64,000 bases of DNA from assembly GCF_000026545.1 (NCBI RefSeq), contig NC_011601.1; one strand, given 5' to 3'. Below the pieces are notes generated by a model. It searched no databases and was not told where the DNA came from. It saw only the letters and a list, made by a program, of their open reading frames with translations. The DNA comes from Escherichia coli O127:H6 str. E2348/69. Lineage in GTDB: Bacteria; Pseudomonadota; Gammaproteobacteria; Enterobacterales; Enterobacteriaceae. Position numbers and translations under genes: made by a program. Every line of letters starts with the position of its first letter. Position 1 is the first letter of the stretch. Shown piece by piece: positions 8,573 to 48,243 of this stretch.

Positions 8573-9427
8573 TTACGCTTCAATAGCAGCGCGCAATTTT
8601 TTCATCGCGTTCTTTTCCAGCTGGCGCACACGCTCAGCGGAAACACCGTAACGGTCAGCCAGTTCCTGCAACGTGGACTTGTTGTCTTCGTCCAGCCAGC
8701 GCGCGCGGATGATATCTTGGCTACGCTCGTCCAGACCTTGCATCGCGTCGGTCAGACGGTTTGCCGCCTGCTCTTCCCAGTTATCATCTTCAATACCGTC
8801 GGCAAAGTTAGATGATTTATCCTGCAGATAGAGCACCGGAGCCATCGGCTGGCTGTCGGAATCGTCGTCGGAAGACAGGTCAAAGGTCATGTCCTGTGCC
8901 GCCATACGTGATTCCATCTCACGTACGTCTTTGCTGGTTACGCCCAGCTCACGGGCCACCATCTCGACTTCATCCTGGTTAAACCAGCCCAGACGCTGCT
9001 TGGTTTTACGCAGGTTGAAGAACAGTTTGCGTTGCGCTTTGGTGGTCGCAACTTTGACGATACGCCAGTTACGCAGAACATATTCGTGGATCTCTGCTTT
9101 GATCCAGTGAACGGCGAAGGAGACCAGGCGCACACCCACTTCCGGGTTAAAACGGCGCACTGCTTTCATCAGGCCGATGTTACCTTCCTGAATCAAATCC
9201 GCCTGTGGCAGGCCATAGCCCGCATAATTACGAGCAATATGAACAACAAACCGCAGGTGAGACAGGATCAGCGTTTTAGCTGCTTCCAGATCGCCATGGT
9301 AATGCAGCTTTTCAGCCAGCGCCCGCTCCTCGTCAGCCGACAACATCGGCCACGCGTTAGCTGCCCGGATGTAGGAATCCAGGTTGCCAACTGGGGCTAA
9401 GGCTAAACTTTGCATTTTGTCAGTCAT
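8573..9427 (-). CDS. rpoH: RNA polymerase sigma-32 (heat shock sigma factor)
   Basis: 284 aa [53 protein letters not shown]...; sigma-70 family regions 2 and 4; RpoH box QRKLFFNLR. Confidence 0.97.
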
Positions 9428-42923: not shown

Positions 42924-42937
42924 TTATTCTTGCAGAA

Positions 42938-42965
42938 AGCAGGGTAGCGATAACGCTACCCTGCT
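42938..42965 (+). terminator. hairpin terminator between convergent dtpB and rsmJ
   Basis: agcagggtagcg ataa cgctaccctgct followed by ttactttt. Confidence 0.6.
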
Positions 42966-42971
42966 TTACTT

Positions 42972-43724
42972 TTACACCGGCGTTCCGGCATAAATATCAA
43001 AGCGATGCCCTTTGGTCACTACCGCGTTTGGCGTGGCGACATTCGCCAGCGGCGGCGCGTAGTTCGGGCGCTTTACCACAACGCGTTTGGTCGCCAGCAA
43101 GCGTGCAGGCTCCAGTAATCCATCGGCATCAAGATCCGGCCCCACCAGCGACTGAAACACGCGCATCTCTTTTTTCACCAGCGCGCTTTTCTGCTTATGC
43201 GGGAACATTGGGTCAAGATAAACTACCTGCGGACGCGGGGTGATATCGCTCAGCGCCGTCAGGCTGGAAGCGTGAATTAACTGCAACCGCTCCTGCAACC
43301 AGCCGCCGATTTCCGCATCCGCATAACCACGCGCCAGGCCGTCGTCGAGCAATGCGGCAACGACTGGATTACGCTCCAGCATCCGCACGCGGCAGCCGGC
43401 TGAAGCCAGCACAAAGGCATCGCGCCCCAGCCCTGCGGTGGCGTCCACCACATCCGGCAAATAATCGCCTTTAATGCCCACCGCTTTCGCCACCGCCTCT
43501 CCGCGACCACCGCCGAATTTGCGTCGGTGCGCCATCGCCCCGCCAACAAAATCAACAAAGATGCCGCCAAGTTTCGGCTCATCACGCTTGCGCAGTTCCA
43601 GATGCTCCGGCGTTAACACCAGCGCCATCAGGTTGTCTTCATCGTGTTCCAGCCCCCAGCGGGCCGCCAGAACAGATAAGGCGCCGTCTCCGGCGCCTGT
43701 TTCATCAATTAAGCAGATTTTCAC
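42972..43724 (-). CDS. rsmJ: 16S rRNA m2G1516 methyltransferase RsmJ
   Basis: 250 aa from (GTG)[23 protein letters not shown]; start chosen by homology, ORF track shows a 35-codon upstream extension overlapping prlC. Confidence 0.88.
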
Positions 43725-43731
43725 TGAATGT

Positions 43732-45774
43732 TCAGCCCTTAATGCCGTAATGCTCCAGCATCGCATCCAGCTGTGGTTCACGACCACGGAAGCGTTTGAA
43801 CAGCTCCATCGGCTCTTCTGAACCGCCACGGCTCAGAATGTTGTCGAGGAACGACTGCCCAGTTTCACGGTTGAAAATGCCCTCTTCCTCAAAACGCGAG
43901 AAGGCATCTGCTGCCAGCACATCGGCCCACAGGTAGCTGTAGTAACCTGCCGCATAACCACCGGCAAAAATGTGGCTGAAAGCATGCGGGAAACGGCCCC
44001 ATGACGGAGACGGTACTACGGCAACCAGTTTCTTGATTTCTGCCAGAGTTTCGAGGATTTTCGCCCCCTGATCCGGACGGAACTCGGCATGGAGGCGGAA
44101 ATCGAACAGGCCGAACTCCAGCTGGCGCAGAATAAACAGCGCCGCCTGGTAATTTTTCGCTGCCAGCATTTTATCCAGCAGCTCCTTCGGCAGCGGCTCG
44201 CCGGTTTCATAGTGACCGGAGATAAACGCCAGCGCCTCCGGCTCCCAGCACCAGTTTTCCATAAACTGGCTCGGCAGTTCGACCGCATCCCACGGCACCC
44301 CACTGATCCCGGAAACACCAGCGGTTTCAATGCGGGTCAGCATATGGTGCAGGCCGTGACCGAACTCGTGGAACAGGGTGATCACTTCGTCATGGGTAAA
44401 CAGCGCCGGTTTACCATTTACCGGGCGGTTGAAGTTGCAGGTCAGATACGCGACCGGTTTTTGCAGCGAACCGTCGGCTTTACGCATCTGGCCTACGCAG
44501 TCATCCATCCACGCCCCGCCGCGTTTGTTTTCACGGGCATACAGGTCGAGGTAGAAGCTGCCGCGCAGTTCGTCGTTCTCGTCATACAGCTCGAAGAAAC
44601 GTACATCCGGATGCCAGACATCAACATCTTTACGCTCTTTAGCGGTGATGCCGTAAATACGTTTCACCACTTCAAACAGGCCGTTAACCGCTTTGTTTTC
44701 CGGGAAGTACGGACGCAGTTGTTCATCGCTGATGCTGTAGAGGTGCTGTTTCTGTTTTTCGCTGTAGTAAGCGATATCCCACGGTTGTAACTCATCGACG
44801 CCAAATTCGGCTTTGGCGAAGGCGCGCAGTTGCGCCAGCTCTTTTTCGCCTTGCGGGCGCGCGCGTTTTGCCAGATCGGTTAAGAAATCCAGCACCTGCT
44901 GCGGGTTTTCTGCCATTTTAGTGGCAAGTGATTTGAAGGCGTAGTTTTCAAAGCCCAGCAGTTGCGCCAGTTCGTGACGCAGCGCGAGGATCTCTTCCAT
45001 CACCTTGCTGTTGTCCCACTTACCGGCGTTCGGACCTTGATCGGAAGCACGAGTGCTATAAGCGCGATACATCTCTTCACGCAGGGCCTGGTTGTCGCAG
45101 TAGGTCATTACCGGCAGGTAGCTTGGGATATCCAGCGTCAGCAAATAACCTTCCAGCTCTTTCGCTTCGGCCTGGGCTTTTGCCGCAGCCAGCGCGCTTT
45201 CTGGCATCCCCGCCAGCTCCGCTTCGTCGGTAACGAGTTTGGTCCAGCCCATCGTCGCATCGAGGACGTTGTTGCTGTACTGGTTGCCCAGTTCAGAAAG
45301 ACGGGTAGCAATTTCGCCGTAACGCTGCTGTTTCTCTTTCGGCAGACCGATGCCAGAGAGTTCGAAGTCGCGCAGTGCGTTATCAACCGCTTTTTTCTGC
45401 GCCGTGTTCAGCGTGGCGTAATGATCGCCATCGCGCAGGTCGCGATATGCCTTATACAGCCCTTCATGTTGCCCTACCCAGGTGCTGTATTCTGACAGCA
45501 GCGGCAGGGTTTGTTCATACGCTTCACGCAGCTCCGGGCTATTTTTCACCGAGTTCAGATGGCTGACCGGGGAGAAGATACGCCCCAGCACATCGTCCAC
45601 TTCCGCCAACGGCTGGCAGAGATTTTCCCAGGTGTACGGTGCCCCTTGCGCTACTACGCGCTCCACATTTTCGCGGCAGTCGTTCAGCGCCTTAGTCACG
45701 GCTGGAACGACATGTTCCGGGAGAATTTTAGAAAACGGAGGCAATTCAAAGGGAGTCAGTAACGGATTCGTCAT
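43732..45774 (-). CDS. prlC: oligopeptidase A (zinc metallopeptidase M3)
   Basis: 680 aa from [26 protein letters not shown]; zinc-binding HEFGHGLHH motif. Confidence 0.96.
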
Positions 45775-45839
45775 TAGCGCAGTCCTGGTTAAAGAGGTTA
45801 AGGAAGCGCTCAACAGGCGCTTTACATAATGTTTGTAGC

Positions 45840-45866
45840 ATGGGGTTAAGTGTAGTGAATTTCAAT
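45840..45866 (-). promoter_or_regulatory. sigma-32 heat-shock promoter of prlC
   Basis: On the minus strand TTGAAA-14 nt-CCCCATGCT, matching the sigma-32 consensus TTGAAA-N13-15-CCCCATnT, about 70 nt upstream of the prlC ATG. Confidence 0.55.
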
Positions 45867-45976
45867 GAGAAACGTTACGCTTTCGCGGCGGCGGCCTCTT
45901 TTCGGTATACTGTCCTGATAGGCTTTTGTGCGCCCCGAATACGGGCCGATTTTTACTTACCGGAACACCTTTACCC

Positions 45977-46819
45977 ATGCTCAGTTATCGCCACAGCTTT
46001 CACGCTGGCAACCACGCCGACGTCCTTAAACATACCGTTCAGAGCCTGATCATCGAGTCGCTGAAAGAGAAAGATAAACCGTTTCTCTATCTCGACACCC
46101 ACGCAGGGGCCGGGCGTTATCAGTTAGGCAGCGAACATGCCGAGCGTACCGGCGAATATCTTGAAGGTATCGCCCGTATCTGGCAGCAGGACGATTTGCC
46201 TGCGGAGCTGGAGGCGTACATCAATGTGGTAAAACACTTCAACCGTAGCGGGCAGTTGCGTTATTACCCCGGTTCGCCGTTGATTGCTCGCCAGCTACTG
46301 CGTGAACAGGACAGCCTGCAACTGACCGAACTGCACCCGAGCGATTACCCGTTGCTGCGTTCTGAATTTCAGAAAGACAGCCGTGCGCGCGTCGAAAAAG
46401 CCGACGGTTTCCAGCAGCTTAAGGCCAAGCTGCCGCCGGTTTCCCGCCGTGGTTTAATCCTTATCGACCCGCCGTATGAAATGAAAACCGACTATCAGGC
46501 GGTGGTCAGCGGGATAGCAGAAGGTTACAAACGTTTCGCCACTGGCACTTACGCATTGTGGTATCCAGTGGTGCTGCGCCAGCAAATTAAGCGCATGATC
46601 CACGAACTGGAAGCGACCGGCATTCGCAAAATTCTGCAAATTGAACTGGCGGTGCTGCCAGACAGCGATCGCCGTGGCATGACCGCTTCCGGCATGATTG
46701 TGATTAACCCGCCGTGGAAGCTGGAACAGCAGATGAATAACGTGCTGCCGTGGCTGCACAGCAAACTGGTTCCGGCAGGCACCGGGCACGCCACCGTAAG
46801 CTGGATCGTGCCAGAGTAA
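45977..46819 (+). CDS. rlmJ: 23S rRNA m6A2030 methyltransferase RlmJ
   Basis: 280 aa from MLSYRHSFHAGNHADVLKH; ORF track start is an upstream extension. Confidence 0.92.
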   Translation: MLSYRHSFHAGNHADVLKHTVQSLIIESLKEKDKPFLYLDTHAGAGRYQLGSEHAERTGEYLEGIARIWQQDDLPAELEAYINVVKHFNRSGQLRYYPGSPLIARQLLREQDSLQLTELHPSDYPLLRSEFQKDSRARVEKADGFQQLKAKLPPVSRRGLILIDPPYEMKTDYQAVVSGIAEGYKRFATGTYALWYPVVLRQQIKRMIHELEATGIRKILQIELAVLPDSDRRGMTASGMIVINPPWKLEQQMNNVLPWLHSKLVPAGTGHATVSWIVPE

Positions 46820-46890: not shown

Positions 46891-48243
46891 ATGACTAAAC
46901 ACTATGATTACATCGCCATCGGCGGCGGCAGCGGCGGTATCGCCTCCATCAACCGCGCGGCTATGTACGGCCAGAAATGCGCACTGATTGAAGCCAAAGA
47001 GCTGGGCGGCACCTGCGTAAATGTTGGCTGTGTGCCGAAAAAAGTGATGTGGCACGCGGCGCAAATCCGTGAAGCGATCCATATGTACGGCCCGGATTAT
47101 GGTTTTGATACCACTATCAATAAATTCAACTGGGAAACGTTGATCGCCAGCCGTACCGCCTATATCGACCGTATTCATACTTCCTATGAGAACGTGCTCG
47201 GTAAAAATAACGTTGATGTAATCAAAGGCTTTGCCCGCTTCGTTGATGCCAAAACCATTGAAGTCAACGGCGAAACCATCACGGCCGATCATATTCTGAT
47301 CGCCACCGGTGGTCGTCCGAGCCACCCGGATATTCCGGGCGTGGAATACGGTATTGATTCTGATGGCTTCTTCGCCCTTCCGGCTTTGCCAGAGCGTGTA
47401 GCGGTTGTTGGCGCGGGTTACATCGCCGTTGAACTGGCGGGCGTGATTAACGGCCTCGGTGCGAAGACGCATCTGTTTGTGCGTAAACATGCGCCGCTGC
47501 GCAGCTTCGACCCGATGATCTCTGAAACGCTGGTTGAAGTGATGAACGCTGAAGGCCCACAGTTGCATACCAACGCCATCCCGAAAGCGGTAGTGAAAAA
47601 TGCCGATGGTAGCCTGACGCTGGAGCTGGAAGATGGTCGCAGTGAAACGGTGGATTGCCTGATTTGGGCGATTGGTCGCGAGCCTGCCAATGACAACATC
47701 AACCTGGAAGCTGCTGGCGTTAAAACCAACGAAAAAGGCTATATCGTCGTCGATAAATATCAAAACACCAACGTTGAAGGTATTTACGCGGTGGGCGATA
47801 ACACGGGTGCAGTGGAACTGACACCGGTGGCTGTTGCAGCAGGTCGCCGTCTCTCTGAACGCCTGTTTAATAACAAGCCGGATGAGCATCTGGATTACAG
47901 CGACATTCCGACCGTGGTCTTCAGCCATCCGCCGATTGGTACTGTTGGTTTAACGGAGCCGCAGGCGCGCGAGCAGTACGGCGACGATCAGGTGAAAGTG
48001 TATAAATCCTCTTTCACCGCGATGTATACCGCCGTCACCACTCACCGCCAGCCGTGCCGCATGAAACTGGTATGCGTTGGACCGGAAGAGAAGATTGTCG
48101 GTATTCACGGCATTGGTTTTGGTATGGACGAAATGTTGCAGGGCTTCGCGGTGGCGCTGAAGATGGGTGCAACCAAAAAAGACTTCGACAACACGGTTGC
48201 CATTCACCCGACAGCGGCAGAAGAGTTCGTGACAATGCGTTAA
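46891..48243 (+). CDS. gor: glutathione reductase
   Basis: 450 aa [51 protein letters not shown] (FAD-binding fold and redox-active CVNVGC disulfide). Confidence 0.97.

Follow-up and report, generated by a model that had tools for sequence, protein, structure and literature searches.

A conserved sigma-32 heat-shock promoter upstream of prlC in Escherichia coli O127:H6, with a -10-like element in its spacer

The promoter that lies upstream of prlC in the 64,000-nucleotide stretch of Escherichia coli DNA analyzed here (the window) is, with a probability that we put at about 0.93, prlCp, the heat-shock promoter from which sigma-32 (RpoH) directs transcription of the prlC-rsmJ operon. It is an already documented promoter; it is real, conserved and ordinary, and the sequence-only reading from which this analysis started had interpreted it correctly. 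Our searches established the motif, its single occurrence in the window and its deep conservation, and the mapped transcription start and the in vivo occupancy by sigma-32 are taken from published data. The dependence of the prlC transcript on sigma-32 and its induction by heat we infer from the literature.

The prlC locus

The 801 bases around the promoter showed 100% identity with E. coli E2348/69 and matched at 95% identity or more in 5421 of the 5426 complete E. coli genomes. The gene prlC, coding for oligopeptidase A (680 aa), occupies positions 43732–45774 of the minus strand and begins with an ATG at 45774. The open reading frame list, the RefSeq annotation and NCBIfam agree on this assignment, the protein scoring 1544 bits with the oligopeptidase A equivalog model NF008159. 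On the same strand is rsmJ (yhiQ; 42972–43724), recognized by the RefSeq annotation, by the NCBIfam RsmJ equivalog and by full-length SMRT-Cappable-seq reads covering b3498|b3497, which place it on a shared transcript with prlC. In the RefSeq annotation of E2348/69, whose sequence is identical here, rlmJ diverges from prlC; it starts at 45977 on the plus strand. The gene gor is found at 46891–48243, also on the plus strand. The plus-strand hexamer TATACT at 45906–45911, which precedes the ATG of rlmJ by 66 nt, is a candidate -10 element for a divergent rlmJ promoter; a consensus scan found no matching -35 for it.

The gene for the trans-acting factor is present in the same window, as the sequence-only reading had stated: rpoH, which encodes sigma-32 (284 aa), is located at 8573–9427 on the minus strand, and its product scored 430 bits with the NCBIfam equivalog TIGR02392, for which the cutoff is 323.

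Sigma-32 recognition elements

Read on the minus strand, the promoter region is cattgaaattcactacacttaaccccatgctacaaacattatg. It is composed of the -35 element TTGAAA (45865–45860), a 14-nt spacer, ttcactacacttaa (45859–45846), and the -10 element CCCCATGCT (45845–45837). The -35 matches the sigma-32 consensus in 6 of 6 positions, although it is preceded by an A where the consensus has a C. In the -10 octamer, CCCCATGC, the CCCCAT core is likewise complete (6/6), and position 8 of CCCCATnT is a C instead of the consensus T. The spacer length fits the 13–15 nt expected for sigma-32, and the octamer ends 63 nt from the prlC ATG, in the correct orientation.

A pattern search for TTGAAA-N13-15-CCCCAT on both strands returned this site as the single exact match in the 64 kb, and 0.05 matches were expected from dinucleotide shuffles. 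The site was also scored by a consensus count over 14 positions (CTTGAAA plus CCCCATNT, with a spacer of 13–15 nt), in which it reached 12/14, the highest value in the window; the runners-up had 11. Ten textbook heat-shock promoters from MG1655, those of dnaK, clpP, lon, htpG, clpB, grpE, fxsA, groS, ibpA and hslV, served as positive controls and scored 12–14 of 14, with spacers of 13–14 nt. The prlC site is therefore inside the range of the accepted members. Thus, the near-consensus sigma-32 motif that had been proposed upstream of prlC on the minus strand, TTGAAA-N14-CCCCAT, was confirmed. The interval given for it, 45840–45866, was right within 3 nt: it holds the motif plus one base, and the trailing GCT extends the -10 to 45837.

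The architecture of two blocks separated by 13–14 nt is shared with dnaK P1, groSL, grpE, htpG, clpB, lon, ibpA and hslVU, but the prlC promoter differs from the canonical sigma-32 promoters in that its TTGAAA is not preceded by a C and that position 8 of its -10 is not a T.

Transcription start

SMRT-Cappable-seq captures 5′-triphosphate ends and sequences whole transcripts, giving starts at single-base resolution; starts were merged only if 5 nt or less apart, and more than four reads were needed for each (PMC6131387). In these data, the start of both the prlC and the prlC-rsmJ transcripts is position 3645238 of NC_000913.3, in M9 as well as in rich medium. The operon table contains a reverse-strand transcript covering b3498 (3643082–3645238), which is listed twice, and another covering b3498|b3497 (3642342–3645238), which is listed once (PMC6131387). 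We take the double listing to represent the M9 and rich-medium tables.

Since the alignment of MG1655 with the window is free of indels in the prlC promoter stretch, MG1655 position 3645238 corresponds to window position 45830. This base, an A on the minus strand, is at -56 from the prlC ATG. The sequence-only reading had predicted that transcription would begin about 7 nt past the -10, and the mapped start is exactly the 7th nucleotide after CCCCATGCT; this is inside the interval of approximately 6–8 nt downstream of the -10 block that is typical of sigma-32. The cultures from which it was obtained were unstressed and grown at 37°C (PMC6131387).

Sigma-32 occupancy and regulon membership

A re-examination of sigma-32 ChIP-chip with a cleaned-up protocol reported, 5 min after heat shock, a log2 value of 2.4 at prlC, compared with 2.2 for groS, 2.3 for grpE and 2.4 for ibpA (PMC2996942). 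In the same paper, prlC is one of the 38 sigma-32 targets common to Wade 2006 and to non-ChIP methods (Nonaka 2006, Zhao 2005), and the probe midpoint at prlC is given as 3643241 in the MG1655 coordinates used there (PMC2996942). Further support is found in a review that places PrlC under sigma-32 control, and in expression studies in which prlC went up under translational stress together with other sigma-32 genes and went down after a cold shift together with the RpoH regulon. Assuming an offset of 1977 bp between the MG1655 sequence versions, the ChIP-chip probe midpoint would presumably fall near window position 45810, some tens of bases away from the motif.

The membership of prlC in the sigma-32 regulon, also part of the initial proposal, is thus supported by the ChIP-chip signal, by the mapped start and by the regulon papers (PMC2996942, PMC6131387). 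The supplements of a Salmonella RpoH ChIP-exo paper and of Kim 2012 were searched as well, and nothing on prlC was found in them.

The ChIP-chip and start-site data come from E. coli K-12, in which the promoter is the same from the -35 through the -10 (the motif of MG1655 is identical) and the gene order, rlmJ divergent from prlC-rsmJ, is also the same; it is this K-12 promoter that shows the ChIP-chip signal (PMC2996942) and the start at 3645238 (PMC6131387). The two strains differ by one A/C substitution at window position 45833 and by another just before the ATG, neither of them in a recognition element. The former is situated between the -10 and the +1, where the window reads ACAAAC and MG1655 reads ACACAC. 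For Salmonella, the orthologous opdA-yhiQ operon is reported as heat-shock regulated in the title of Conlin & Miller 2000 (J Bacteriol 182:518). The likeness to that operon was judged from this title and from Citrobacter and Enterobacter sequences, the 80 loci described below being from genera other than Salmonella; Citrobacter and similar close relatives have TTGAAA-N14-CCCCATT.

Conservation of the promoter

Of the 5426 complete E. coli genomes, 5418 contained the 45-mer spanning the promoter, 1719 of them with an identity of at least 99% and 3699 with 95–99%; the lowest match sampled had 95.1% identity over 41 nt. Most E. coli genomes differ from the 45-mer of the window, plausibly at base 45833.

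Beyond the species, one genome per species was scanned, which yielded 80 prlC loci with 70–100% protein identity from Enterobacterales, Orbales, Pasteurellaceae and Vibrio. In 75 of the 80, TTGAnn-N13/14-CnnCAT was present in the 300 nt that precede the prlC start codon. The form of the motif varies with the lineage: it is TTGAAA-N14-CCCCAT in Enterobacteriaceae, TTGATT-N14-CC(T/G)CATGT in Erwiniaceae, Yersiniaceae, Hafniaceae and their relatives, CTTGATA-N13-CGTCATAT in Pasteurellaceae, and TTGAAA-N14-CTA(T/C)ATTT in Vibrio. The spacer is 14 nt long in most Enterobacterales and 13 nt in Pasteurellaceae and Orbales. A consensus score of 12 or higher was reached by 37% of the real upstream regions, against 0.3% of the shuffles and none of 632 coding controls.

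When 63 distinct upstream sequences from the prlC loci were anchored on the motif, the -35 hexamer had 1.6–2.0 bits per position, with an invariant TTGA, and the C..CAT core of the -10 had 1.2–1.6. The 30 nt on either side were randomized (0.2–0.6 bits per position), so that the two blocks were 3–8 times above their flanks. The two Cs upstream of CAT are conserved across orders and are dispensable for sigma-70, which argues for recognition by sigma-32.

With a relaxed pattern, no sigma-32-type motif was found in the 300 nt upstream of prlC in Pantoea sp. Mb-10, the Nezara viridula symbiont and Haemophilus sp. CCUG 60358. These cases could be losses or relocations of the promoter.

Alternative readings of the site

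The same stretch could also be read as mainly a sigma-70 promoter, consisting of TTGAAA, a 17-nt spacer and CATGCT, which resembles the sigma-32 consensus by accident and is used by sigma-32 to a minor degree. TTGAAA matches TTGACA in 5 of 6 positions, and a 17-nt spacer is optimal for sigma-70. By eye, CATGCT (minus strand, in the stretch 45837–45865) matches in 3 of 6 positions and keeps -11A and -7T, and the +1 predicted from it is the same base, 45830; that this start was mapped in unstressed cells (PMC6131387) also fits. However, a sigma-70 consensus scan did not call TTGAAA-17-CATGCT, which was below threshold, and sigma-32 is found at prlC after heat shock at a level like that of groS and ibpA (PMC2996942). 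The CC upstream of CAT, which sigma-70 does not need, is conserved across orders, and prlC tracks the RpoH regulon in expression studies. Sigma-70 is therefore quite improbable as the main user of the promoter. Because the sigma-32 promoter would share its +1 with a weak sigma-70 promoter, the start alone does not identify the holoenzyme responsible for the 37°C transcripts, which could come from basal sigma-32, from sigma-70 or from both.

Another reading concerns the spacer. Inside it, at 45855–45846 of the minus strand, is CTACACTTAA, a -10 element of the sigma-S/sigma-70 type, and according to this alternative the functional promoter would be the nested one, with its start at -67 (45841), the sigma-32 match being secondary. 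CTACACTTAA fits the -10 motif of sigma-S (sigma-38), CTAtacT, with a C at -13 and a downstream TAA (motif per PMC3923258). In Table S1 of Mendoza-Vargas 2009, one 454 read for prlC starts at -67, and a sigma-38 -10 was called on attcACTACACTTAaccc with a PATSER score of 7.07 and flagged as new; only sigma-70 and sigma-38 matrices were scanned in that study (PMC2760140). In the window, -67 is the A within CCCCAT, seven nucleotides after TACACT, and the read thus begins at the predicted spot. Conservation of the element in Enterobacteriaceae, described in the next section, is a further point in favor.

On the other side, the -67 start is backed by a single read, which departs from the -56 start, and SMRT-Cappable-seq, in two media, lists only 3645238 for prlC and calls no start at -67 (PMC6131387). 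Moreover, CTACACTTAA is without a recognizable -35, and CTACACT is lost in most of the non-Enterobacteriaceae that keep the sigma-32 elements. The supplement of the sigma-S ChIP-seq study of Peano 2015 does not contain prlC, and in 13 papers naming both prlC and rpoS we found no sigma-S data on prlC. A promoter in which the nested element does the work and the sigma-32 match is secondary is highly improbable.

A chance match with no promoter function, for which it could be said that 5 of the 100 shuffled windows held at least one exact match, has a negligible probability, the mapped start and the conservation having refuted it: the site is correctly oriented and stands 63 nt before a gene known to belong to the regulon, a capped transcript begins 7 nt downstream of the site (PMC6131387), and the motif is kept from Escherichia to Vibrio amid randomized flanks.

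A conserved -10-like element in the spacer

Next to the sigma-32 promoter, which we retain as the main reading, the spacer element deserves consideration on its own. In 25 distinct Enterobacteriaceae sequences, CTACACT had 1.62 bits per position, equal to the -10 octamer, and in 29 other Enterobacterales it had 0.28. The exact heptamer also occurs in two Erwinia species, in Hafnia and in one Pantoea, with unrelated flanks.

A promoter of the divergent rlmJ could have explained this conservation. Where rlmJ adjoins prlC, however, its distance from the -35 is variable, from 77 to 123 nt. CTACACT is also kept in Pluralibacter, Cedecea and Erwinia endophytica, which have no rlmJ in the 1.5 kb upstream, and in Phytobacter, Hafnia and E. 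mallotivora, in which rlmJ is 600–1200 nt away. The rlmJ promoter was thus rejected as the cause of the spacer conservation, and, since CTACACT is kept regardless of rlmJ, the element belongs to prlC and not to an rlmJ promoter. A general preference of sigma-32 for such spacers was rejected too, as none of the spacers of the 10 canonical sigma-32 promoters resembles CTACACTTAA.

To judge from these comparisons, selection appears to maintain the nested element in Enterobacteriaceae, and also in some of the Erwiniaceae and Hafniaceae, independently of the upstream context. That a second, functional promoter is nested in the sigma-32 promoter of prlC at CTACACTTAA, with a start at -67 inside CCCCAT, is a tentative proposal that we consider somewhat more doubtful than probable. 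If it is true, two holoenzymes would compete for overlapping DNA at the prlC promoter; one start would serve stationary-phase or basal expression, and the other expression under heat shock.

The 5′ leader and the operon ends

The 5′ UTR of prlC (45775–45829, minus strand) includes a putative GCGC/GCGC hairpin and the Shine-Dalgarno sequence AGGA. The hairpin would be formed by AAGCGC-N7-GCGCTT (45822–45804, minus strand), and its GCGC/GCGC core is present in 24 of 25 leaders from Enterobacteriaceae and Erwiniaceae. This 4-bp stem is essentially invariant, with one compensatory change in one pair, and so there is almost no covariation for or against it; the conserved AAGCGC-N7-GCGCTT may act either as a stem in the RNA or as a palindrome in the DNA. 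A third conserved GCGC is found between the Shine-Dalgarno and the prlC ATG, at about 45777–45780. The whole leader folds no better than its shuffles (z = -1.0). An RNA thermometer in the 5′ UTR is not supported, given this value and the fact that the sole consensus helix is the 4-bp GCGC/GCGC.

At the other end, a scan found a terminator-like, G+C-rich hairpin with a T-rich tail at 43698–43679 of the minus strand, in the initial 50 nt of the rsmJ coding sequence. Transcripts that cover only prlC have their 3′ end at MG1655 3643082, which corresponds to window position 43674, 5 nt past this hairpin (data from PMC6131387). The hairpin (43679–43698) may act as a partial terminator and in this way set the ratio of prlC to rsmJ. 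The prlC-rsmJ transcripts end at 3642342, or window position 42934 (data from PMC6131387), just past a 13-bp hairpin located directly downstream of the rsmJ stop codon, at about 42937–42966 of the minus strand. On the other strand, dtpB converges on this second hairpin, which may therefore terminate both.

Proposed mode of action and significance

In the mechanism that we propose, RNA polymerase carrying sigma-32 would bind TTGAAA as the -35 and CCCCAT(GCT) as the -10, 14 nt apart, and would begin transcription at the A at window position 45830, which is -56 relative to the prlC ATG. The transcripts either end at the hairpin just inside rsmJ or continue to a terminator downstream of rsmJ. Upon heat shock or protein misfolding, the rise in sigma-32 would increase the output of oligopeptidase A along with that of the other regulon members. 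At 37°C, basal transcription may be due to the basal activity of sigma-32, or to sigma-70 acting through the same -35 and the CATGCT -10.

For the locus itself, the significance goes little beyond annotation: a reading made from sequence alone located a documented heat-shock promoter with an error of a few bases, and its prediction of the start was exact. A small lead on the overlap of sigma factors at one promoter comes from the conserved -10-like element of the spacer. For the wider group, the prlC promoter is ancient, being kept across Enterobacterales, Orbales, Pasteurellaceae and Vibrio, and its deep conservation supports a place for oligopeptidase A in the core of the heat-shock regulon.
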